A DNA stretch of 64,000 bases, taken from the NCBI GenBank assembly GCA_963777315.1, contig CAVZQC010000004.1, positions 448,001-512,000 on the forward strand, written 5' to 3'. This stretch comes from Vulcanimicrobiota bacterium (GTDB lineage Bacteria; Vulcanimicrobiota; Vulcanimicrobiia; Vulcanimicrobiales; Vulcanimicrobiaceae). Made by a program: the position numbers and the translations under genes. Under the pieces are notes generated by a model. It saw nothing but the letters and a program-made list of their open reading frames with translations. It searched no databases and was not told where the DNA came from. Of the stretch, positions 14,653-31,282 are shown one piece after another; the first letter of the stretch is position 1; every line of letters starts with the position of its first letter.

Positions 14653-16239
14653 GTGGCCGTTTTTGCGAAACACCCGTGCGAAGAGCGGCGCTATGCAGGC
14701 CCGCGTCCTCCGGCGCCGGCAGCGCGTCCCGGTTGGATACTGCTGGTTGCCATCGTGGGTTCGAGCATGACGTTTATCGACGGCAGCGCCGTCAACGTCG
14801 CTCTGCCGACGATGCAGCGGGACCTGCACGCGGACGCCGCGGCTTTGCAATGGGTGATCGAAGGTTACGCGCTGTTTCTCTCCTCGCTCATTCTGATCGG
14901 GGGATCGCTGGGCGATCTCTTGGGCAGGCGCCGCATCTTTGTCATCGGCATCGGCGTGTTCGCCGCGGCGTCGCTGGGCTGCGCGGTGTCGCAGCACATC
15001 GTCGAACTCAACGCAGCCCGGTGCCTGCAAGGCATAGGCGCCGCTTTGGCCGTGCCCGGAAGCTTGGCTCTGATCAGCGCGGGCTACGGCGGCGCAGAGC
15101 GCGGACGCGCGATCGGATCGTGGTCGGGTTTCGCTGCTATCACCGCTGCAATCGGTCCGTTGCTGGGCGGATGGCTGGCGCAGCATGCCTCGTGGCGATA
15201 TGTGTTCGTCATCAACATCCCGCTGGCAATCTTCGTCGTAACGGCATCGCTGCTGCGGGTTCCCGAAAGCCGCGATGAAGGACGCTCGCATTCGATCGAC
15301 GTCGCCGGCGCATCGATGGTGACCGCAGCTCTGGCCGCATTGACCTACGGTTTGATTCGGCTGCAAAGCGCCCCGGACGTTGTCGGCATTGCGTGCGCTT
15401 CGTGCAGCGTGCTCTTTTTTGCGGGGTTCGCACTGTGGGAGCGCCGCAGCGATTCACCGATGGTGCCCCATGGGATCTTCGGCAACCTGACGTTTACCGG
15501 CGCGAATGCCTATACGTTCTTCCTGTACGCCGCGCTTGGCGGCAGTCTGTACTTCGTGCCCTTCGACTTGCAAAACGTGCACGGATATACTCCCACGGCT
15601 GCGGGCGCTGCGATGCTGCCCTTCGTGCTGATCATGTTCGCGTTTTCTCGATGGTCCGGCGGTCTGGTCGCAAAGGTGGGCGCGCGCACTCCCATGATCG
15701 CCGGTGCGCTGATCGCTGGAGGCGGATTCCTGGCGTACGCGCGAATCGGCGTAGGCGGCTCGTATTGGACGACGTTCTTTCCCGCCGCTGTGGTCCTTGG
15801 TTTCGGAGGCGCGTTGTTCGTGGCGCCGTTGACGACGGCGGTCATGAATGCGGTGGAAACCGCGCACGCCGGCGCGGCCTCCGGTATCAACAACGCGGTC
15901 TCGCGGGTAGCGGGGCTGCTGGCGATCGCGGCGCTGGGCATCGTGCTGGCCGCGACGCTTTATGCGACGTTCGACCGGCGCGTTGCGGCTCTTTCGCTGA
16001 CGCGCGAATCGGTCCGCACGCTGGCTCGCGAACGCGGCAGTTTGGCCACGGGCAAAGTTCCGGCAGATTTGGCCGAGGCGGACCGAGCGCAGGTGCAGAC
16101 GGCGCTGCGCGCGGCGTACACCGACGGATTCCGCCGGACGATGATCGTTTCCGCACTGTTGTCTTGGATCGCCGCGTTCATTGCGCTGTTCACGATTGCA
16201 AAATCTCCGCTCCCGGTTCCGATGACGCCGTCAGCGTGA
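14653..16239 (+). CDS. MFS drug:H+ antiporter (DHA2-like)
   Basis: DGSAVNVALP, GSLGDLLGRRRIF motif A, GPLLGG, many TM helices. Confidence 0.92.
   Translation: MAVFAKHPCEERRYAGPRPPAPAARPGWILLVAIVGSSMTFIDGSAVNVALPTMQRDLHADAAALQWVIEGYALFLSSLILIGGSLGDLLGRRRIFVIGIGVFAAASLGCAVSQHIVELNAARCLQGIGAALAVPGSLALISAGYGGAERGRAIGSWSGFAAITAAIGPLLGGWLAQHASWRYVFVINIPLAIFVVTASLLRVPESRDEGRSHSIDVAGASMVTAALAALTYGLIRLQSAPDVVGIACASCSVLFFAGFALWERRSDSPMVPHGIFGNLTFTGANAYTFFLYAALGGSLYFVPFDLQNVHGYTPTAAGAAMLPFVLIMFAFSRWSGGLVAKVGARTPMIAGALIAGGGFLAYARIGVGGSYWTTFFPAAVVLGFGGALFVAPLTTAVMNAVETAHAGAASGINNAVSRVAGLLAIAALGIVLAATLYATFDRRVAALSLTRESVRTLARERGSLATGKVPADLAEADRAQVQTALRAAYTDGFRRTMIVSALLSWIAAFIALFTIAKSPLPVPMTPSA
15739..16200 (+). 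repeat. Copy 1 of a 462 bp imperfect direct repeat (3' part of MFS gene)
   Basis: Aligns without gaps to 19547..20008. Confidence 0.95.
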
Positions 16240-16620
16240 CCATCAGAATACTTTGCTTCCCACGAGCCTGATGTGGTTGACGGCTGGCGGCGGCACGAAA
16301 CCGCCAGCACCGGCGCAGTATGCCGTTCAGAAGTTGTACTACGGTAAACCGATGCCCTAGATGGCAAGAAAGCCGCTCATGCTTCGGATCACGCGGCCTC
16401 TGCGAGAAATCGTGGTAATGCAAAACGGCGCTGCTCTAAAAGGGGGCGACCGCCGTGCTCGCGCGCGTCGATGCTTCTGCACGGTCGGCACTTCGTTGTG
16501 CGGACCTGGCAGACGGATTTTAGGTGAGAAGTATGCGTACGAAACAGTGAGATACACCCCCGATAAGTGTTCACGCATGGGCTGCACACGCTTCCCGAGA
16601 TACGGGGACAACGTAGTGAA

Positions 16621-16760
16621 CGCAGCACAGTGGAACGAAATCCTCGCCGATACGGGGATGACCTTGGTAGCAATCGATCGACTCGTCCATCACGCAACGA
16701 TCCTCGAAATGAACGCCGAGAGCATCGCCGACGAACTGCCGAGCGAAAGCAAACGTGACA
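16621..16760 (+). pseudogene. istB: IS21-family IstB helper ATPase C-terminal remnant
   Basis: QWNEILADTGMTLVAIDRLVHHATILEMNAES matches the IstB C-terminal IDRLVHH motif; rest of gene absent. Confidence 0.8.
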
Positions 16761-16995
16761 AAGCTGGAAAAACACTAATTTTATCCAGGCTGCGAGAAAG
16801 CGTGGACCAGATCCACTAGCAAGAGATTTCGACGCGAAAGGGGCTCATCCACACCCCGGCACAACCGCTGCTGCGACCAATTCTATAACAAGCGGCACCG
16901 GTGTAGGCATGTCTCGAACCCGATCCGCAGAATGCAATCGGATTGTAACGGAACGCTGCTTCACCATCGTGCCGCTATGCGGCTGGGCCAATGTT

Positions 16996-19546: not shown

Positions 19547-20050
19547 GCGCGAATCGGCGTAGGCGGATCATACTGGACGACGTTCTTTCCCGCAGCGGTG
19601 GTCCTTGGTTTCGGAGGCGCCTTTTTCGTGGCGCCGTTGACGACAGCGGTGATGAATGCCGTGGAAACTGCGCACGCCGGTGCAGCCTCAGGTATCAACA
19701 ACGCTGTCTCGCGGGTTGCGGGACTGCTGGCGATCGCGGCGCTGGGCATCGTGCTGGCCGCGACGCTCTATGCGACGTTCGACCGGCGCGTCGCGGCTCT
19801 TTCGTTGACACGCGAATCGATCCGCACGCTGGCTAAGGAACGTGGCAGCTTGGCGACCGGCAAAGTTCCGGCGGCCCTTGCCGCAGCAGATCGAGCGCAC
19901 GTGCAAACGGCACTGCGCGCGGCATATACCGACGGATTCCGCCGGACCATGCTCGTTTCGGCGCTGTTGTCTTGGACCGCGGCACTCGTTGCGCTGTTCA
20001 CGATTGCACGATTTTCTCAGCCCGTTCCCGCGTCAGCGCAGACACACTAA
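19547..20050 (+). pseudogene. Orphan 3' part of MFS transporter (repeat copy 2), open but lacking the 5' two thirds
   Basis: Near-identical translation to the C-terminal ~154 aa of 14653..16239, different tail. Confidence 0.9.
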
Positions 20051-21277
20051 GGACAGTGCCAATGCCGGCACCGTCACCAGAAGGCCGATGCGCAAAAATT
20101 GCCGCGGCGTCACTTCGACGCCGTCGCGGCGCAGCAGCAGCAGCCAGAGCAGCGTCGCCAGGGATCCGGTGACCGAAAGATTGGGGCCGAGATCCACGCC
20201 GATCAGCGCGGCATTCGCGATATGCGAACCGACCTGATGGTCGTGCAATGCATACCGCACCAAAACGCCCGTCGGCAAATTGTTCAGCACGTTGTCCGCG
20301 ATCGCCACCACCGACCCGGTCAGCAGCGACCCGGCCAATTGCGGCAAACCGTTTGCCTGATGAAAGAACGCGCGCGCGTACTCGAGCACGCCCGTGCGAT
20401 CGAGTCCTTGAACGATGACGAAGAGTCCGGCTACGAGCGGAACGATCGACCACGGGCCCTGTCTCGCTATCGCTGCAGGCGTGGTTGAGTCGCGCATCGT
20501 GACCGCGAGCATGCTGAGCGCAGCCAAAACGAACGTGACGCGTCCCACCGGCCAGCCGAATGCCGTAGCTGCGACGATCAGAACCGCCGAAGCGGAAACC
20601 ACGCACAGCGCCGTTTTTCCGGCTTGCGTCAACGGGAACGGGCTGGATTGTGGGTTACACCGGCCGCCCAGTTCTCGCCGGTACGCGTAGCGCAAGAGCA
20701 GAAAAGTTGAGCCGACTGCAGCTGTCGACGGCAGCCAAAACGCGCCCAGCCAAGGCAGCAAGGTCGGAAGCCGGCGAAACACGACCAAGTTGGCCGGATT
20801 ACTTATGGGCAAGATGAAGCTGGCCGCGTTCGCGACGAACGCGCAGGCATACAGGAACGGCAATGGTGCAACGCCGGCGCACCTGGAGAGCGCCAGCACC
20901 GCCGGCGTGAGAAGAAGAATCGTCCCGTCGTTGGAAAGCAGCGCGGTCACGGCGATTCCGCCGGCATACACCCATGCGAACAGGCGAGCGCTGGAACCCG
21001 CGGCACTGCGCAAAAGAACCTGCGCGGCCCGATCGAAAACGCCGTGGATGCGCGCAAGCTCGGCCAGAGTGAGCATGCCGGCAAGAAACAGATAGACGTC
21101 CAGACCGTCGAGCGCGGCGTTGGCGGCATCCGTGCCGCCGAGCAGGCCGCTCGCGACCAAAACCGCCGCGCCGGCCGTGGCCCAGACCCATTCGCCAATG
21201 CGCCAAGGACGCAACAAAATCGCCGCGATGGTCGCGGCGCTGATGGTCCAGACGGCAATGGCGGCGCCGGCGGTCAT
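20033..21277 (-). CDS. ArsB/NhaD-type membrane transporter
   Basis: [48 protein letters not shown]. Confidence 0.88.
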
Positions 21278-21410
21278 GTGCCGCAGCAGTTTTGCCCGTT
21301 CCATCGAGCACCTTCAGAGCCGGCGGCCTGCTAGCGGCCGCCTTGCCCTAATCCGGCCGGATGCTGCACGCGCTGCGAGTGCCGACCGGCTGCACCGAAG
21401 GCGTTAAGCG

Positions 21411-21911
21411 TCAGTGCAGAACTGTGACCGACGGTTCGCCCGTCGGCTGATTGTTTGTCGACATCGGATCGTAGAGCAGCCAAATCTTCCCGTACGTGTC
21501 CAGAATCGAAGCGGTGACTTTTTTCGCATCATCCGCAGACAGGTCGGGCATCGTCGCGTTCACCTTCGGAATTTCGTCTCTGTGGTAATGCCATAAAGAC
21601 TGTTCGCTTGCAGGGAACGATTTATACGTTGCGGGACTGACGATGGTTTCCACTCCGATCAGCGTCGCGTTCGGCGCATCGCTGCTGTACAGCTGGCATT
21701 CCGTCAATCCGTTTTCCACGGGTTTGCACCAATGGTGCGCGATCTCGGTCGGATGCTGATCGCCGAAATGTTTCTCTGCGTCGATGTGCAGCGTCCAGCC
21801 CTGCGTCGGCTGCGGGCCGGTTGCGGCCCCTGCAGGCGGCAGCGAACGCGCGACCAGCGCTCCAGCAATAAAGGCCGCGCATAGCGCGATCGCACTCAGG
21901 ACGGTTTTCAT
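21411..21911 (-). CDS. Secreted DUF1264 (OBAP-like) protein
   Basis: Signal peptide; AHHWC...ECQLY...LIGVETIVS...LWHYH...TYGKIW. Confidence 0.8.
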   Translation of the reverse strand: MKTVLSAIALCAAFIAGALVARSLPPAGAATGPQPTQGWTLHIDAEKHFGDQHPTEIAHHWCKPVENGLTECQLYSSDAPNATLIGVETIVSPATYKSFPASEQSLWHYHRDEIPKVNATMPDLSADDAKKVTASILDTYGKIWLLYDPMSTNNQPTGEPSVTVLH

Positions 21912-21993
21912 TGCAAGGTACCTCCATAATATTAACCTACGTCATCATTATGCGCCGAGCCTCTAAGGGTCAGGCAGGAGTCCGGGCCGCCAG

Positions 21994-22027
21994 CGAAGTA
22001 GATGAAACTATTATTCTGTCTACTTCG
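21994..22027. other. Putative dif-like tyrosine-recombinase site
   Basis: CGAAGTAGATGAAACTATTATTCTGTCTACTTCG: perfect 9 bp outer inverted repeat; core 21997..22024 parses as 11-6-11; directly upstream of a xer gene. Confidence 0.65.
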
Positions 22028-22074
22028 ACGCGGAACGAGGAGGGCGGCCGATATGCGGATCCAGCGGTGCGAAC

Positions 22075-23031
22075 ATGGGCCTGGATAAGCGGCGCGGCCC
22101 GGCGCTGGCCGATCCCCTGATCAGCGCGCACGGCGCGTTCGTTTTGCTCGAGCGTGGCCGAGGCGCGCTGACCGTGGAGGCCTACGCGCGCGATTTACAG
22201 CTGTTCGGAGCGTTTCTTGCCGGGCTGCCGCGCGATCAAAGCCCCTCCGGGCACGAATATCCGCAGCTGCGCACCGCGACGGCTTCGAACATCCGGCAGT
22301 TCGTCATCGAATTGGCGGGACCGCGCAAGTACAGCGCCGTGTCGATTCGGCGCAAACTCGCTTCGATCAAATCGTTTTACAAGTTTCTCAAGAGCGAAGG
22401 TTTGCGGGAGGACGATCCGGCCGTCCACATACCCGGGCCCAAGGTCCAGGAAAAGCTTCCCCGGTACCTCGAGCAGCCGGAGGTTTCCAAAGTTTTGGGC
22501 GTGCGCGTCGCCGGGCGGTCAGCCGAGCTTCAGGCTCGCGACCTTGCGATCATGGAGCTGCTCTATGCCAGCGGCATTCGGCGGGCCGAAGTCGCGGGCA
22601 TCGACATCGGCGACGTCAACTTAGAGCGGCGCACGATACGCGTGATGGGAAAAGGCAAACGCGAGCGCATCGTCATCATCAATCACGCCGCCGCGGACGC
22701 AATTGCCGCGTATCTGCGCTGCCGCCCGCAAAGCAGTGAGGACGCGCTGTTCTTGGGACGAAGCAAACGGCGGCTGTCCCCCCAGCAGGTGTGGAAGATC
22801 TTCCGCCTCTTCTACGATCTCAGCGGAATCGACAAAAAGGCCAGCACGCACACGATGCGGCATTCCTTTGCCACCCATTTGCTGGAAAACGGCGTGGACT
22901 TGGTCACCATCAAGGAACTTTTGGGGCATAAAAGTTTGGCAACGACGCAAATCTATACCAACGTTTCGATCGAGTTCAAAAAACGCGCCTACGACGAAGC
23001 GCATCCGCGCGACCGTGAAAAGCACCGCTGA
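22075..23031 (+). CDS. XerC/XerD-family tyrosine recombinase
   Basis: TVEAYARDL SAM-like domain; LLYASGIRRAE (R), GKGKRER (K), HTMRHSFATHLL (HxxR), LLGH...TTQIY (H, Y). Confidence 0.93.
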   Translation: MGLDKRRGPALADPLISAHGAFVLLERGRGALTVEAYARDLQLFGAFLAGLPRDQSPSGHEYPQLRTATASNIRQFVIELAGPRKYSAVSIRRKLASIKSFYKFLKSEGLREDDPAVHIPGPKVQEKLPRYLEQPEVSKVLGVRVAGRSAELQARDLAIMELLYASGIRRAEVAGIDIGDVNLERRTIRVMGKGKRERIVIINHAAADAIAAYLRCRPQSSEDALFLGRSKRRLSPQQVWKIFRLFYDLSGIDKKASTHTMRHSFATHLLENGVDLVTIKELLGHKSLATTQIYTNVSIEFKKRAYDEAHPRDREKHR

Positions 23032-23034
23032 CGC

Positions 23035-23748
23035 GTGAAGGCCCGCGTTCTTTTTCCCCTTCTGCTGAGCGCGTCGCTCGCCGGATGCGGGGCTTCGAGC
23101 GCCACGCTCACGCGGAGCGGCCTGTTCGCACCGGGGGGAACGATCTCCGTACGCAACCTGCGCGGCGACATCGATGCGTATGCGCCGGCACGCGGCGCAC
23201 CGCAGAGCGCGTATCTGGTGTCGGCATACGAACCCGCAAACGCTCGCACCGCGACGATAACGGTGCGTCCGCTGTTGATCTCGGCACAAGCCCATGGACC
23301 GGGGGTGCGTTTTTTGGTGCGCGGGCCGGCCGGCACGGCTTTGGACCTTTCTACGCGGCAAGGCGACATCTCCGTGGCGGATTTCGACGGTATCGTCAAT
23401 GCGCATACCGGCAGCGGAAACATCAAAATGCTGATCCCGCAGTACGGCAATGCGTCGATAGGGTCCGGCGACATGAGCATCATCTTTGCGAGCACGGACT
23501 GGCCGGGTGTGCTGCACTTTACCGCGCGCCGAGGCGACGTCGAAATCTACGTCAACGAGAACGCAAAAGCACGCGTGCATCTGCATACGAACGACGGCAC
23601 GGTCTTTAGCGACTTCAATCTACGCGGAGCCTCACACGGCGTCAGCGAAACGATCGACGGCGCGATCAACGGCGGAGGCCCACGTGAGGTCGACGTGGAG
23701 GTCGTGACAGGCTCTATCCGTTTGATGCAGCTTAAGCCGCAGATCTAG
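23035..23748 (+). CDS. DUF4097-like beta-strand-repeat lipoprotein
   Basis: Lipobox LAGC; repeated GDI/GNI/GDV/GSI units. Confidence 0.75.
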   Translation: MKARVLFPLLLSASLAGCGASSATLTRSGLFAPGGTISVRNLRGDIDAYAPARGAPQSAYLVSAYEPANARTATITVRPLLISAQAHGPGVRFLVRGPAGTALDLSTRQGDISVADFDGIVNAHTGSGNIKMLIPQYGNASIGSGDMSIIFASTDWPGVLHFTARRGDVEIYVNENAKARVHLHTNDGTVFSDFNLRGASHGVSETIDGAINGGGPREVDVEVVTGSIRLMQLKPQI

Positions 23749-23809: not shown

Positions 23810-24244
23810 ATGATACAAGCCGCCGAGATTTTGCACGTTCTGGGGCAGCGGTCGCCGTCCCGACCTTCAGCAGCCGAGCAAACCGCCCGGAGCCTGGTCC
23901 GCAAAGGTCTCCCCGCTTCGGTCATCGATGCTTTGGCCGGCCATTTCGGTGCCAACGTCGAGGACGTTTTGCACGCGGTCGGCCTTTCAAAGGCAACCGG
24001 TGCGCGTAAACGCGCAAGCACCGGGTTGCTGCGTCCCGCTTCTTCGGACCGGGCGTTCCGCATGGCGGCCGTTCTCGTGCTTGCACGCCATGTTTTGGAA
24101 GACGATGAAACGGCGCAACAGTGGTTCCGCGAACCGAATCGCGCCTTGCAGGGTGAACGGCCGCTCGATCTGCTTGATACCGAGATCGGAACGCAGCAGG
24201 TCGTTCGCGTTTTGAACCGCCTCGAAGGCGGCGTCTATTCTTGA
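23810..24244 (+). CDS. Xre/MbcA/ParS-type antitoxin
   Basis: VRKGLP, SDRAFR, WFREPNRALQGERPLDLLDTEIG...LEGGVYS. Confidence 0.92.
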   Translation: MIQAAEILHVLGQRSPSRPSAAEQTARSLVRKGLPASVIDALAGHFGANVEDVLHAVGLSKATGARKRASTGLLRPASSDRAFRMAAVLVLARHVLEDDETAQQWFREPNRALQGERPLDLLDTEIGTQQVVRVLNRLEGGVYS

Positions 24245-24780
24245 GGGCATGGCGTCTGTGCAAGCGTCGATACAGCGCTCGGGACAGCGTTCTAAGTGGA
24301 GAAGGCTCGCAAGACGTCGGAGGCCGCTGGAATAGGCCCGGCCTTCCGATGGTCTATGCTTCGGAAAATTCCTCACTGGCATTGCTGGAGACGCTGGTCC
24401 ATACCTCGATAGCCGGCTTGCCGAAATCGCTGGTTGCGGTTGAGATTCACGTTCCCGACGACGTTGACGCTACAACGCTGTTGGAAGGTTCGCTTCCCGC
24501 GACGTGGCGGGAATTAGACGATCGCCAATGCGTCGCGCTCGGCTCGGCGTGGATAGAAGCCAATGCCGATCTGGTGCTGCAAGTGCCGTCAGGCGTGAAC
24601 CCGCTCGAACGCAACGTCCTGCTGAATCCGCTTCACGCAGACATCGCACGCTGCACGATCGGGGCGGTCGTTCCCATAGTATATGACCCGCGGTTGCTGG
24701 CTCTGTTCCGAACGCCGCGGCCGGCCACTTCGGTCTCCCAAAAGCTCAAGCGGTCGCGGGCGCAACCAGTACGGCGCTAG
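24241..24780 (+). CDS. RES-domain toxin
   Basis: GGRWN (R), LALLETLVH (E), VPS (S), NVLLNPLH; 4 nt overlap with antitoxin. Confidence 0.92.
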   Translation: MRAWRLCKRRYSARDSVLSGEGSQDVGGRWNRPGLPMVYASENSSLALLETLVHTSIAGLPKSLVAVEIHVPDDVDATTLLEGSLPATWRELDDRQCVALGSAWIEANADLVLQVPSGVNPLERNVLLNPLHADIARCTIGAVVPIVYDPRLLALFRTPRPATSVSQKLKRSRAQPVRR

Positions 24781-25687: not shown

Positions 25688-28600
25688 TTACAAATCTACG
25701 CGAACGCGCCGGTACGAGCTGCGTCCGAACTGCTCGGGGGCGTTCAAAAGATAGGCGTGTGTGCCCGGCCACAGATACTCGCCGGGCGTAACGGAGCGGG
25801 CCAAGTAATGAAACGCGTACGCCCCGGGGTCTAGGTGCTGCGCGAACGCGACGATCCGATCCCGGTAAATCTGCTGGTAATCGATCTGCCAATCGTCGGC
25901 GAGCGGCCGATAGTAGGCGGCGCTTGTGGCAAACGACGTGTCCAGAGCTTCGAAACCGGCCGGCAGCGGATCGTCGACGAGCACGCGGTCTACCGGGTGA
26001 TCCGTGATGACTTGCACTTCGACGTCGTACACGTTGCCTGCGGCAAATGCCAGCGGCTGCGCGTCGGCGGATAGGTCGATCGTCGCCAAGGGAGTGCTCG
26101 AATTCACCGCGCGAATCGTCCGCATGGCCCGCAGGCCCGAAAGTTGTCCCGGCGCGTCGGCCCCCAAAGCGTACGTGTAGGAGACGACGTAGTGCAGCGT
26201 GCCGCTGCCGGTTTTGCGCAGAACGACGGTATGCGATCCGGGCCGCAGATGCCGCAGTTCGATCGTGTGCGCAGGATCGGAAAACGCGGTAAAACGCGCG
26301 CTCCCCGCGTTCGAGCCGTCCAGGATCGCTTCAGCGGTAAAGTCAGGTGCCGCGCGCTGTGCGTTTGCGTAGTCGGCGATGGCCGCAAGCGCGGCTGCGG
26401 TATCGTCCAAGCCGCTCCAACCGCATTTGCACTGCTGAGCGACCAGCGCGCGCAGCGCACGGTCGGCGTCCTGCTGCGGTGCGCCGCGGTCGACCAGCAG
26501 CCGTACGTATGCAGCCTGAGCCTGCACCGGGGAACCGTACCACGAAGGCTGCTCTTGAACGTTGATGTACCGCCCGGTGACGGCAACTTCTCGCTCGAGG
26601 CTGCGCGCGAGCGAGTCGGCCTGAGCGCCCCATCCTGGCGTATGCTGCACGTACAGCGCTAGATCGATTCGTTCCGCAATGCCGAGATCGCCGCGGCCGG
26701 CAACGATGCTCTGCAGAAAATCGGTGCGGCGGTCACCCATCGACGCCAGAGCCTCCAGCATTGCCAGGCGCAGCGATGCCTTGCACGATGCAGCGGTGCA
26801 CCATTTTACGGCGCCGGCGGGATCGCTCAAGCCGCGCACCAGGTACGGTTTGGCTTTCGCCAGCGCCGCTTTCGGTACGGCAATACCCGAGCGTGCCGCC
26901 AGTGCAAGCGCGCGGACCGCGTACGCACTGGCAAACGCGTCCGAACTGTCCGCGTCGGGCCAAAAGCCGAAACCGCCGTCGATACGCTGCAGTGCCAGCA
27001 GACCTCGAACGGCATCGCTTGCCGCGCTCGAGGCGTCGATTCCGGTATGCGCTCCGAGCTTTGCCTGCAGCTCGCGCATTCGAACGGCAATGTTCAACCG
27101 GCTCGCCAGCGGCGTGAGCAATGCGGGGGTTTCCACAGCGAGTACGCGCTTGACGGGGGCGTCGATTTCGGGCAGCAGCGATCCGGCAAAATCGATGCGA
27201 ACGATGCCGTTATTCCCGACGACAACGGGTATCGTGTCCTGCGTTTGGGCAGCGCCTGCGTCCATGGTCGACTCGGACACGCCGGCACTTCGGATGTCCA
27301 GCGGCACCCGGAATGCGTCCGAAGCGCGGCCCGTAGTCGTGATGAACTGCATCGATGCCGGTCCCGCGGAACCGACGACCATGGGAAAACGCCATGGATT
27401 CAAACCCTGGCCGAATGTGCTTTGGGCTTGGGTCGTTCGAACGTCATTCGATGCGAACGTCAGCGAGCCCGAAAGCAAAGCTTGCGTTCGTGCGTCCACC
27501 GCGGTGCCGGTGGCGTTCATCAGCAGCAGACCGCCGTCGAAGCGGTCGCCCGGACGCGCGAATTGCGGCATCAGCGGATCCGTGACCAGCGGTTTGGTCG
27601 TTACGAACGTCGCATCGGCCTGGCCGAACCGTGGAATGGAATCGCCGGTTGCCGCGACCGCCATGACGCGCCAGGTCGTAAGATCGTCCGGAGTGGTGAA
27701 CGAAACGAAGGCTTCGCCGCGTTCGTCCGTCGTGACGCCGGCGTTGAAATACGCCAGCGGCATGAAGTGCGTTCGCACGCGGGTGCCCGCCGCTCCGGCA
27801 AGAAAACCGCCCCCGAATCCCCACCCCTTCTGCGTGGCGCTCGAAATCTGCGCCAGCGTCACGTCGGGCCGGTTGTCGGCCAATCGCGTAGCGATCGGCT
27901 GTGCGGCAAACACCGTTTGCAGCAAATCGGGCGGACGGTATCCGCTCAAACGAAGGATCGCATCGTTGACGACCATGACGGTAAGTTGAGAGCGAATCGC
28001 TCTTCCACGCCGGTCGACCACGCGCATGCGGATCGATTCACGCGCGTGCGGCTCAAGGCTCGCGCTCACCGGTTCCAGCCTCACACTGAGCGCACGGCTG
28101 CGCACGTCGAGCGTGAGCGGAACCAGTCCGATGCGCACGAGGCTGTCGACGTCGAGCGGGCTTCGCTGCGCCAGGGGCGCGCCGCGGCGAACCAGCACGC
28201 CCTCAACCGCCGCATTTGGAAACATCGACTGCTCGATGGGAATGCGAACGCGCGGAGCGCTGCCGTTGACGTGTACGAGGGTCTTGTACAGGACGCGGTC
28301 GCGCACGACGGACAGATAGAGATCGGCTTTGTCGTACGGGCAAGCCACTGCAACCGTCGCCATGTCGCCCACGCCGTACTGCTGTTTGTCGAGTTTCAAC
28401 TGCAGCTGCGAAGGGTTCTCCTGACCCCAGACCGCTGGGCCCGCACCGGTAATCCACACCTGCGTGTCGGTCGCCGTAGCTGCATTCGCGGCGTCGGCGA
28501 AGTTCGCGCGTATCCGGTAACTGCCCGAATCCGGGGCGACCAGCGACACGGGCCGCGGCTGCGATCCCGATTCGACGTCCGCCCGCGCTACGGTCACGTA

Positions 28601-31282
28601 CCGCACTTGATTTCGCGCCGCTTCGGCGCCTTCGACGATCTGCGTAACGCCGCTGTAGTCCATCTTCTGCAGCTCGACGTGCACGCGGGATCCGGCTTGC
28701 GGCTTTCCGGAGGGGTCGGTCACGATCACCGCGACGGAGACGGGTTTGCCCGCCGTTCCCACGAAATCGCTGCGCAGCCCAATCTGCAACGCACCAGGCA
28801 GCGCGGTGAAAGTCTGCGTCGCGCTGCTCGTCAGCTCTGAGGCGTCCGTAACCTCCCAATCGACGCGATAGGTCATCGCATACGGAAGGGCCTGGTCCAC
28901 GGAAATCGCCGCGACGCCTTTGCCGCCGGCATCCAAAGCAATCTTTTGCTCGCCGGCGTCCGACTGCACCTCCGGCGGCTGCTGCGGCCAAAACCACTGG
29001 CGGCCGAACGTGAAGTCGTCCCAACCCGTGGGCGAAAAGTTTGCTTGATCGCGCGTGACGTGCACGGCCGCCGTCACTCCGCTCATCGGCGCGCCGAAAA
29101 GATAGCGCGCCGTTCCTTGCGCGCGAACGACTTGGCCTGCGGCTGCGTACGTTTTGTCCAGCGACAGATCCACGCTGAAATTAGGCGGCCGAAACTCCGC
29201 CACGCGGAACGATCCGGTGGTCTGCACGCCGCTGGGTCCGGTTGCGACGATCGTGTAATATCCCAAAGCCTGCGACTTGGAAAAATCGATTGGAAAAGAG
29301 AACGTTGCATACCGGTTGGTCGTGTGCGCGGGCAACGTCGTCTTGACACCGCTCGGGCTTTCCAACTGCAGCGTGTACCAAGCGCCTCGATCGGCGTGAA
29401 GCGCGCCGTTCTGGAGCACGTAGCAAACGGCGGTAAACCAGCCGCGTTCGCCCGGCTGATACATTTGACGATCCGAGAAGACGGTTCCGCGCGACATCGG
29501 CTGGCCGGACGACCACGACGCGTCGCCGATCGACTGTGAATATTGGAAGACTCCGCTCCAGTCGAATGTCCGTACGTAAGCCCAGTCCGCACCTTCACGA
29601 GCCACGACGTAGAGTTGCGGCGCCTGATCGGCCGGCCGATTTCCGGCGTAACATGCTTGGAGATCGGGACCCGCGATCGTCAGCGTGCCGGACGCATCGG
29701 TCGTTCCTTGCGCGCATCGGCGCGCCGGTACGGGCAACGGTTCGTCCGCGTGCGAAGCGTACACGTCGACGGAAGCTCCGCGTACGGCGGCGCCATCGCT
29801 CAAATGCGCGACCATAATGACGCCGCTTTGGGCAAACCACTGCGCGAAGACGCCGAGGTTGGTCAGCTGCACGGTGCCGGCCATCGGAAACGATCCCGGC
29901 AAACCGGAGTCGGTACCGTACGCCAGCATTCCCGCCGGTTTTCCCAGCAGCTTTCGCAGCGGCACGTTTATCGTGCTCGTCCCGTTGCGCGCCGCGCCGG
30001 CGACGATGCGCCGCGGCCAGGCAGAGCGCGGCGGCAGCAGCTGCGCCGCATCGCCGTCGAAATTGGCGACGTCGGCAGGCGCGAGCACGCGATACTGCGC
30101 GCGATAAACGTTCGACGGCAAATTGGCCGCGCTGTACTGGAGTTGCAGATTCTGCGACGAAACGAACGTGTTGCTTCCGGTCGGCGCCCAAAAGTACGGT
30201 GCGAGATCGGGCGTTGTGTATCGCTGCTCGACGCCGCGGCCCAGATTCTGGCCGTAGACGTCCCGGAGCGAGGAGTCGAACCGGAAAGTATACGCCGTGC
30301 GCGGAGCGAGCGCGTAGGGGTTCACGTAGATTTCCGTGCGGTCGTCGGACAGCGAATAGAGCTGTGCCGACCGCGGGGCCGGAACGAGCGCAACGTGCCG
30401 GGCATACGTTTTGGGATCCAAACCATTGTTGAATACCAGCACGGGATCGCCGCCGGCAAAACGCGACAAGCCGTTCCACGTGAGCGGATCGGCCGTAGGG
30501 GCAACGCGCACGAATGACAGGGCAGAGTATGTCGTCATCGGCAGGTCCAGGGATGAACTGCTTGCCACGTTTCCACGCAGCGGCATGATACCCGGGGCGA
30601 TTCGCAGCCGGTAGTGCGTCGCTCTGCGCAAGTCGGTTTCCGGCGCGATCGCATAGGTGAAACCGGCGCCCTGCGGAGCCGGTGAAGGCGTGGTCACCAC
30701 GGCGCCCACGCTGCCCTGCGGTGACACGAACGCCGCGTGCCGAGCGACGTCGGCACTCGCTGCTTGCGCGCTCGAAACGATTCGCACCGACGGCATGAGC
30801 GATACGATGCCCGGCGTGGCCCGGATATCCGGGCGCAGTTGCAGGGGCGGCGTCGTAAACGTCCAGGCGAGATCGCGATCGAGCACGTGACCGCTCAGAT
30901 CGTCCAGCCCTTTGGTCAGCGTTACGCGCAGGCGCGTCGCGGGCGGCAGCGGGGCGTCGGACTGAAACGCAATCATGCGCGGCGTGAGAACGACGAACGC
31001 GCCCGGCAGCTCCGGCGCCAGCTGAAAGTGGCCGAGCACCGTTCGGTCGCGATCCGACCCAATCTGCTCGACCGGCAAGACGGGTGATTCGAACAGGATC
31101 CGGATTTGCGCGCGCTGCGAAACCGCGCCGAACGGCGAAAGGTGCGAAATCCACGCGGGAACCGCCGGGGAAGGCAAGGCTCGCACCGTCGCCATCGGTG
31201 CGGGTGCCTGCGAACCGGATTGCACGCATCCGCCAAGAACGGTAAACGCGATGATTCCCGCGATTCCAAGAGGCGCGCGCAT
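25688..31282 (-). CDS. Alpha-2-macroglobulin family lipoprotein
   Basis: 1864 aa; lipobox LGGC; FSDRQMYQPGE, FRVAEFRPP, PDDLTTWRVMA, LQRIDGGFGFW, DPLPAGFE. Confidence 0.93.
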   Translation of the reverse strand: MRAPLGIAGIIAFTVLGGCVQSGSQAPAPMATVRALPSPAVPAWISHLSPFGAVSQRAQIRILFESPVLPVEQIGSDRDRTVLGHFQLAPELPGAFVVLTPRMIAFQSDAPLPPATRLRVTLTKGLDDLSGHVLDRDLAWTFTTPPLQLRPDIRATPGIVSLMPSVRIVSSAQAASADVARHAAFVSPQGSVGAVVTTPSPAPQGAGFTYAIAPETDLRRATHYRLRIAPGIMPLRGNVASSSSLDLPMTTYSALSFVRVAPTADPLTWNGLSRFAGGDPVLVFNNGLDPKTYARHVALVPAPRSAQLYSLSDDRTEIYVNPYALAPRTAYTFRFDSSLRDVYGQNLGRGVEQRYTTPDLAPYFWAPTGSNTFVSSQNLQLQYSAANLPSNVYRAQYRVLAPADVANFDGDAAQLLPPRSAWPRRIVAGAARNGTSTINVPLRKLLGKPAGMLAYGTDSGLPGSFPMAGTVQLTNLGVFAQWFAQSGVIMVAHLSDGAAVRGASVDVYASHADEPLPVPARRCAQGTTDASGTLTIAGPDLQACYAGNRPADQAPQLYVVAREGADWAYVRTFDWSGVFQYSQSIGDASWSSGQPMSRGTVFSDRQMYQPGERGWFTAVCYVLQNGALHADRGAWYTLQLESPSGVKTTLPAHTTNRYATFSFPIDFSKSQALGYYTIVATGPSGVQTTGSFRVAEFRPPNFSVDLSLDKTYAAAGQVVRAQGTARYLFGAPMSGVTAAVHVTRDQANFSPTGWDDFTFGRQWFWPQQPPEVQSDAGEQKIALDAGGKGVAAISVDQALPYAMTYRVDWEVTDASELTSSATQTFTALPGALQIGLRSDFVGTAGKPVSVAVIVTDPSGKPQAGSRVHVELQKMDYSGVTQIVEGAEAARNQVRYVTVARADVESGSQPRPVSLVAPDSGSYRIRANFADAANAATATDTQVWITGAGPAVWGQENPSQLQLKLDKQQYGVGDMATVAVACPYDKADLYLSVVRDRVLYKTLVHVNGSAPRVRIPIEQSMFPNAAVEGVLVRRGAPLAQRSPLDVDSLVRIGLVPLTLDVRSRALSVRLEPVSASLEPHARESIRMRVVDRRGRAIRSQLTVMVVNDAILRLSGYRPPDLLQTVFAAQPIATRLADNRPDVTLAQISSATQKGWGFGGGFLAGAAGTRVRTHFMPLAYFNAGVTTDERGEAFVSFTTPDDLTTWRVMAVAATGDSIPRFGQADATFVTTKPLVTDPLMPQFARPGDRFDGGLLLMNATGTAVDARTQALLSGSLTFASNDVRTTQAQSTFGQGLNPWRFPMVVGSAGPASMQFITTTGRASDAFRVPLDIRSAGVSESTMDAGAAQTQDTIPVVVGNNGIVRIDFAGSLLPEIDAPVKRVLAVETPALLTPLASRLNIAVRMRELQAKLGAHTGIDASSAASDAVRGLLALQRIDGGFGFWPDADSSDAFASAYAVRALALAARSGIAVPKAALAKAKPYLVRGLSDPAGAVKWCTAASCKASLRLAMLEALASMGDRRTDFLQSIVAGRGDLGIAERIDLALYVQHTPGWGAQADSLARSLEREVAVTGRYINVQEQPSWYGSPVQAQAAYVRLLVDRGAPQQDADRALRALVAQQCKCGWSGLDDTAAALAAIADYANAQRAAPDFTAEAILDGSNAGSARFTAFSDPAHTIELRHLRPGSHTVVLRKTGSGTLHYVVSYTYALGADAPGQLSGLRAMRTIRAVNSSTPLATIDLSADAQPLAFAAGNVYDVEVQVITDHPVDRVLVDDPLPAGFEALDTSFATSAAYYRPLADDWQIDYQQIYRDRIVAFAQHLDPGAYAFHYLARSVTPGEYLWPGTHAYLLNAPEQFGRSSYRRVRVDL

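Follow-up and report, generated by a model that had tools for sequence, protein, structure and literature searches.

A candidate single-recombinase Xer/dif module at the replication terminus of a Vulcanimicrobiota bacterium

Whether a bacterium with a single Xer recombinase might resolve its chromosome dimers at a site lying directly in front of the gene for that enzyme is the question raised by a locus in a window of 64,000 nucleotides (the whole stretch of DNA analysed) on contig C4 of G000, the assembly of a Vulcanimicrobiota bacterium. A sequence-only reading had pointed to an AT-rich 34-bp near-palindrome ending 47 bp before a complete XerC/D-like gene, both of which are confirmed from the sequence, and had proposed a self-contained single-recombinase module at the terminus, a proposal which is supported by skew, conservation, the presence of one Xer and the lack of another canonical dif. 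Based on computed evidence, namely the site, its uniqueness, position and conservation, the covariation of its arms, the single Xer and its active site, the FtsK gamma domain and the polarity of a short motif, it is very probable that the site and the lone Xer constitute the chromosome dimer resolution module of the host, a soil bacterium.

By analogy with known systems, binding of Xer, strand exchange and dependence on FtsK are predicted for this site. Once crossing-over had fused the daughter chromosomes, septal FtsK would take its direction from the heptamer GAAGAAG and pair the two 28-bp sites. Four molecules of the single Xer would then bind, one per 11-bp arm, and two monomers would result from strand exchange over the 6-bp spacer, which would follow the usual pathway of tyrosine recombinases.

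The recombinase and the palindrome in front of its gene

The candidate dif site (Table 1) is an intergenic, palindromic sequence of about 28 bp with a G+C content of 29%, as compared to about 62% for the genome. Eight of the 11 positions pair between its 11-bp arms, and 47 bp lie between the 34-mer palindrome and the in-frame ATG of xer at 22075. Equal or greater symmetry and A+T-richness are found in only 9 of the 2,825,438 28-mers of the assembly, and the site is unique in these 2.83 Mb, the next-best match having 10 mismatches in 28 positions. A profile built without the window's site returns that site as its top match (22.9 bits vs 16.1 for the next). When the site of the nearest relative is omitted as well, the window's site is merely tied for top at 16.6 bits, and a smaller first profile lacking both sites placed it sixth in the genome; with larger profiles it ranked first or tied.

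Table 1. Positions of the candidate module and of neighbouring features in the window
Feature	Position	Strand	Remarks
Candidate dif site, 11-6-11	21997-22024	.	AGTAGATGAAA-CTATTA-TTCTGTCTACT, read from sequence
Arms of candidate dif	21997-22007 and 22014-22024		
Spacer of candidate dif	22008-22013		
Extended inverted repeat, 34-mer	21994-22027		Outer 9 bp form a perfect inverted repeat
Possible sigma-H-type promoter	21972-21997	+	AGG at 21972 or 21976, GAA at 21995; abuts left arm
Upstream ORF, 11 codons	22053-22088	+	Good ribosome-binding sequence; out of frame, overlaps xer start
Xer tyrosine recombinase, XerC/D-like, 318 aa	22075-23031	+	Complete ORF, catalytic R-K-H-R-H-Y intact
ArsB-like transporter gene	20033-21304		Flanks module
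DUF1264 gene	21411-21911		Flanks module
DUF4097 gene	23035-23748		Flanks module
Nearest left GAAGAAG	20911-20917	+	Candidate KOPS, points at site
Nearest right GAAGAAG	24039-24045	-	Candidate KOPS, points at site

The match of the right arm to the Bacillus subtilis arm at 8 of 11 positions, which had been brought forward in favour of a dif site, is real but not significant, and carries no weight by itself because 1,055 11-mers of the genome match equally well. Nor is there a conserved XerD arm, as the right arm is variable at 9 of 11 positions among 65 distinct sites of the class. Elsewhere in the assembly no canonical dif was found. The only candidate, a canonical-looking palindrome at C4:394099, was rejected as the 5' end of a 16S rRNA gene, and is present in only 7 of 61 genomes.

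The Xer protein consists of the Pfam SAM-like and catalytic domains, and its catalytic residues R169-K193-H259-R262-H285-Y294, as identified from the alignment, do not vary among the 90 aligned orthologues (three of 93 loci having been dropped due to frameshifts or stops). Its NCBIfam scores are 276.7 bits for XerC, 261.6 for XerD, 210.6 for XerA and 123.2 for XerS, all of them below the respective cut-off; the best match in the PDB is 1A0P, making XerD the closest solved relative, and the match to XerH is distant (63 bits, residues 125-298 only). The closest named relatives are 15 Vulcanimicrobiota/Eremiobacterota records with 56-59% identity, and the other 65 loci, from other groups, have 30-46%. 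In a quick tree the Xer proteins of the phylum form one clade when compared to 17 outside Xers (SH-aLRT 94).

It is the sole Xer-like gene of G000, three further integrase-domain matches being weak, and a second paralogous recombinase was not found in this assembly of 6 contigs, which is 89.9% complete. As counted by hand with the XerD model at E<=1e-40 and at most 7 candidates scored per genome, one Xer-like match is present in 250 of 301 genomes of the phylum, two or more in 33 and none in 18; for the 244 genomes of the class the respective numbers are 209, 17 and 18. Of the 33 genomes with more than one match, G042 was examined and G043 in part. The idea of a single recombinase is thus borne out by the count of xerC/D paralogues both in G000 and in most of the phylum. 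Single matches are also found in relatives assembled into one contig, e.g., G005, G006, G009, G015 and G024. These tallies, like those for dnaA below, include the unpublished genomes G028, G059, G021, G048, G019, G029, G250 and G222. In G140 (97%, one contig) and G200 (91% complete) neither an xer gene nor a site of the genus type was found, and therefore loss may occur; the absence may equally be an assembly gap.

The neighbourhood of the module is partly syntenic, with the ArsB-like gene present at 16 and the DUF4097 gene at 30 of 93 xer loci. Several further observations concern these surroundings. The 11-codon upstream ORF has a better ribosome-binding sequence than xer itself, and in locus L002, too, a short ORF lies ahead of xer. 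Just downstream of the module lies a RES-Xre toxin-antitoxin pair (23810-24780), followed by a bacterial alpha-2-macroglobulin gene (25688-31282). On the other side, the 3' end of an MFS transporter gene is duplicated as a 462-bp direct repeat with 89% identity (15739-16200 and 19547-20008), enclosing a 3.3-kb insert of lower G+C content with a fragment of IS21 istB (16361-16819) and genes without Pfam match. In loci L004, L023, L031 and L033, site and xer are separated by small co-directional genes which by eye look like GIY-YIG/T5orf172-type nucleases, and in G024 (L128) by an IS transposase. Besides the site 1.2 kb upstream, G156 (L154) has another site-like element, with a spacer of 7 bases, next to xer.

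Position at the terminus and conservation of the site

On contig C4 the maximum of the cumulative GC skew is at 484 kb, within a plateau supported from 460 to 494 kb, so that the site, at 470.0 kb, lies inside the turning zone where the sequence-only reading would have placed it. With training on the remaining contigs, the polarity of 4- and 6-mers places the turn at 468-473 kb. The convergence of genes on the site likewise holds for the contig, with 289 genes on the plus and 125 on the minus strand to the left and 141 and 290, respectively, to the right; in the window the numbers are 14 and 5 to the left and 7 and 30 to the right (all according to rough gene calls of our own).

In all 14 single-contig genomes having xer, the gene resides opposite dnaA at a distance of 0.449-0.517 of the genome length, some of the lengths being rounded; the fifteenth such genome, G140, has no xer match. 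Four genomes, sampled over 400 kb, have their sites 63-130 kb off the antipode of dnaA (G015, G166, G024 and G214), and in these the polarity switch tracks the site and not the antipode. In G015 the switch is at 1,927 kb and the site at 1,926.2 kb, and in G166 the k-mer switch is at 593-596 kb and the site at 594.2 kb. Single measures disagree with the position of the site in two of them, namely plain GC skew in G024 (1,795 kb, vs 1,690 kb for the k-mer switch and 1,692.1 kb for the site) and the k-mer fit in G214 (2,319 kb, vs 2,409 kb for the base-skew switch and 2,402.5 kb for the site).

A separate observation is that 12 of 77 loci (L002, L004, L006, L008, L010, L015, L017, L020, L023, L123, L129 and L152) have DnaA-box-like TCCACA elements on the flanks of the site, with none at the window's site. 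All 12 elements on the left point right and all 11 on the right point left, and they are about 8-fold more frequent near sites than in the locus background. They are possibly accessory sites.

The genome also encodes an FtsK gamma domain. In training that left out 200 kb around the site, GAAGAAG was the top 7-mer skewed independently of gene direction (z 7.2). Its strand switch in the window falls between 20911 and 24039, 6 of 6 copies to the left of the site being on the plus and 6 of 7 to the right on the minus strand, and the distance from the peak of its polarity to the site amounts to 1.1 kb in G000, 0.06 kb in G015, 1.4 kb in G024, 2.3 kb in G214 and 11 kb in G166. Some contigs of G000 show only weak polarity of the heptamer (C2 left 20/25, C3 13/10), and for the KOPS octamer of Escherichia coli there is none (11 of 20 copies leading). 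Since the same heptamer is the experimentally shown KOPS of Lactococcus lactis FtsK (PMC3384302), we infer by analogy that the host FtsK may read GAAGAAG.

The predicted conservation of the motif beside orthologous xer genes was found throughout the class: a related site is present at 73 of 76 xer loci (among which loci of named relatives may repeat genomes already counted), upstream of and oriented as xer, one overlapping the aligned start. It was not found in G028 and G021, nor in G017, where only a left arm lies next to xer. The distance to the aligned xer start is within 150 bp for 55 of 67 sites and 0.4-1.7 kb for 12, e.g., 1.0 kb in G018 and 1.7 kb in G024; three further sites are close to xer and three lie at about 5.0 (G033), 5.6 (G009) and 9.3 kb (G166). 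In G018, G024 and G009, genes on the opposite strand lie between site and xer. Type-specific patterns occur once per genome in seven of eight matching genomes, the exception being G033 with two copies, one of them at a contig end, and the reversed control gave no match. In the 65 distinct class sites, of which those added later were accepted partly by position and symmetry and some of them at low scores, the inner AAA..TT is invariant, the spacer has mostly C at position 1 and mostly A at position 6 with free middle bases, and arm positions 7-9 are often unpaired. Some have a right arm beginning with TTATG as in canonical dif, and in several relatives the arms are perfectly palindromic. The unpublished genomes G028, G059, G021 and G048 are included in the site counts, alignment and trees, and no conclusion rests on these alone.

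In the other classes of the phylum, a palindrome of higher symmetry, TCGYCAAA-N6-TTTGRCGA, can be found in 50 of 57 genomes at one mismatch, as compared to 15 of 57 for the reversed control. Of 20 loci, 12 (one doubtful) have this palindrome at most 400 bp from xer, and it is on a different contig in, e.g., G067, G069, G101, G105 and G111; in 8 genomes of these classes no site was found in 20-40 kb around xer. Given these palindromes and the mostly single Xer, one Xer with a symmetric site is therefore phylum-wide. The proposed linkage of site and gene is the rule in the class but is not obligatory, since the two are 5-9 kb apart in three genomes and on different contigs in several lineages of other classes; as judged from these arrangements, it is in this class and some others that site and gene are tightly linked.

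Arm covariation, candidate promoter overlap and possible exchange of the module

While the outer arms diverge widely between lineages, their complementarity is kept. Among 29 sites whose selection involved no symmetry term, complementarity is seen for 137 of 232 outer pairs, in contrast to 86+/-7 in 5000 shuffles (maximum 116), and with one site per arm type the number is 41 of 72 as compared to 23+/-4 (maximum 38), related genomes in both counts not being independent of one another. The figure for 65 sites, 353 of 520 vs 186, is biased upward because sites were accepted partly by position and symmetry. The type of site goes with the Xer clade and with the helix aligned to TRQTFW of XerD, which has a role in base recognition, and not with the host family. 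Near mirror-image arms which drift together with the recognition helix are explained if one protein reads both of them.

Among spaced trimer pairs, AGG-N18/19-GAA is the one most strongly avoided in G000 (z -21.5); its avoidance is three- to four-fold genome-wide, and it is also depleted in the four relatives sampled. Together with a Firmicute-type sigH gene scoring above cut-off at C1:3992-4579, this makes a major sigma-H regulon likely in G000, whose phylum is not known to form spores. The motif, which fits mapped SigH promoters of Clostridioides difficile (PMC7438776), is not clearly enriched upstream of the gene calls of G000. In 32 of 65 class loci, however, the -10 of a sigma-H-type element lies no more than 10 bases from the left edge of the site, 30 of these at -2/-1, as compared to 0.4 in random windows, 0 at the mirror position and 0 of 11 in other classes, and in 7 other class loci a sigma-70-like -35 accompanies a TATCAT in the left arm. 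What speaks for sigma-H is thus that the motif is avoided throughout the genome, that it is positioned at the site and that a sigH gene is present. With a -10 at the left edge, transcription would start inside the site, and bound Xer would therefore repress xer. For relatives with a well-spaced promoter we regard the chances that Xer at the site blocks its own promoter as about even. In the window the promoter is doubtful because its spacing is 20 or 16 instead of 18-19, and such a block is there rather unlikely. The alternative of dif or operator, as put in the sequence-only reading, is accordingly not an either/or, as a dif site may double as the xer operator.

The Xer tree, a quick one, conflicts with the host families. 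Family f3 is scattered in it, and holding its 10 rows together was rejected with p-AU 1e-7 in a test on 37 of 96 rows with a quick tree and the group chosen after seeing that tree. In G042, two tandem Xer genes, separated by one other gene, belong to different clades (L126, G042:C14:4682-7208; p-AU 3e-68); the single site there is of the type belonging to the adjacent, first copy, and the arrangement possibly represents a cassette replacement in progress. The simplest reading of the conflict together with G042 would be replacement of cassettes by transfer; the conflict may also be due to ancient paralogy or binning errors.

A broader model joins these points, to which we would give somewhat less than an even chance. 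According to it, a distinct lineage of one XerC/D-sized recombinase would resolve dimers throughout the phylum and would form, in the class, a self-regulating and exchangeable cassette, in which the promoter of xer, of sigma-H type in many members and of sigma-70 type in others, is overlapped by dif and bound Xer limits its own synthesis. Site and helix would have co-diverged into at least eight specificity types, and whole cassettes would have been swapped at the terminus across family borders, G042 holding two of them.

Competing explanations and known Xer systems

The proximity of 55 of 67 class sites to the aligned xer start, together with a sigma-H-type -10 at the left edge in 32 of 65 loci and sigma-70-like pairs over the left arm in 7, could also mean that the palindrome is an operator only, by which Xer or another regulator represses xer while dimers are resolved elsewhere. 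This is improbable to a high degree and fails because sites are displaced and unlinked: they persist 1.0-9.3 kb from xer in G018, G024, G033, G009 and G166, with opposite-strand genes intervening in three of these, and lie on another contig than xer in several genomes of other classes. In addition, the site has the geometry of a recombination site with a free spacer, and no other dif candidate was found in G000. There is a very slim chance that Xer belongs instead to a mobile element residing at the terminus, as its integrase or resolvase, with the palindrome serving for attachment or resolution of that element. Debris near the terminus, i.e., the IS21 helper fragment, the RES-Xre pair and the duplicated 462-bp transporter tail, would fit such an origin, as would the conflict of the Xer tree with host families; it is copy number (one in 209 of 244 class genomes), the fixed position opposite dnaA and the conserved chromosomal neighbours that make this reading fail, and moreover no second site or element end was found nearby and the Xers of the phylum are one clade.

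That a normal XerC/XerD pair is present and its second gene missing from the incomplete assembly is scarcely conceivable. A completeness of 89.9% would leave room for it and some right arms do begin like canonical dif; however, the explanation fails because the single-contig relatives have one Xer, and in several relatives the arms are perfectly palindromic. The probability of an RNA hairpin or terminator, finally, is practically negligible, since no T run follows the palindrome on the strand of the gene, it is the inner AAA and TT that do not vary whereas arm positions 7-9 often remain unpaired, and the type of site tracks the DNA-contact helix of the recombinase, even though the 9-bp perfect stem would suit a hairpin and RNA stems show compensatory changes as well. 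A dimer resolution site used by one Xer hence remains the preferred reading.

If so, an almost uncultured phylum would gain an exact marker for the terminus, along with candidates for an FtsK guide motif and a sigma-H promoter consensus, which could help to orient and close genomes and to integrate DNA site-specifically in the cultured member. The series of naturally matched sites and helices might serve as a test set for specificity change in tyrosine recombinases. It also bears on the relation of one-enzyme to two-enzyme Xer systems, a question raised in PMC5357621, as here a XerC/D-like protein is predicted to act alone on a site of canonical length. Among the literature matches listed, which did not extend to subscription journals and supplements, no description joining Vulcanimicrobiota with Xer or dif was found, nor anything on autoregulation of XerS. 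The survey of Kono 2011 (PMC3025954) is restricted to XerCD genomes, the phylum being absent from those parts of it that are drawn on here, and Vulcanimicrobiota are unnamed in the main text of PMC8138268.

One-recombinase systems as such are already known, namely XerS, XerH and XerA (PMC5357621, PMC2731167) and, in Legionellales, XerL (PMC9765430). The canonical XerC/XerD-dif systems of E. coli and B. subtilis (CodV/RipX) comprise the best relatives in sequence and structure and share the 28-bp geometry and the terminus, but the module described here has one enzyme, symmetric co-varying arms without a conserved XerD arm, and a gene linked to its site. Its recognition triplet is PQQ as compared to RQT in XerD (triplets of the Xer families are given in PMC2958812). 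XerL/dif likewise combines a single recombinase with a palindromic terminus site, yet dif is more than 400 kb away from xerL, which cannot be recognized as an orthologue of XerC/D/S/H (PMC9765430). In Helicobacter and Campylobacter, the single enzyme XerH usually has its site near the gene, and difH has inverted repeats around a variable 6-bp centre with an inner AAAC...TT; however, XerH has 354-362 aa as compared to 318 aa here, and the outer arms are unrelated and far more variable in Vulcanimicrobiota (PMC2731167).

The comparison with XerS/difSL of Streptococcus and Lactococcus, drawn already from the sequence, holds for one recombinase with its gene beside the terminus site and for FtsK (PMC5357621, PMC1914069, PMC2965235), and the KOPS heptamer of L. 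lactis is the same as the candidate guide motif (PMC3384302). It does not hold for the enzyme, which is of XerC/D/XerA size (XerS has 356 aa) and reaches 123 bits with the XerS model against a cut-off of 267, nor for the site, difSL having 31 bp and not 28. Archaeal XerA, in turn, is a single XerC/D-sized enzyme with a near-symmetric 11-6-11 site, and in some archaea xerA and dif also form a module (PMC5357621, PMC2958812). In contrast to the FtsK-independent XerA, the host here is a bacterium with an FtsK gamma domain, polar motifs converging on the site and a site opposite dnaA; the score of 210.6 bits with the XerA model, against a cut-off of 220, together with the host, sets the Xer of the window apart. 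As far as sequence comparison goes, the Vulcanimicrobiota module would thus combine the layout of XerS/difSL with the enzyme size and site geometry of XerA, while failing the orthology test for each of them.
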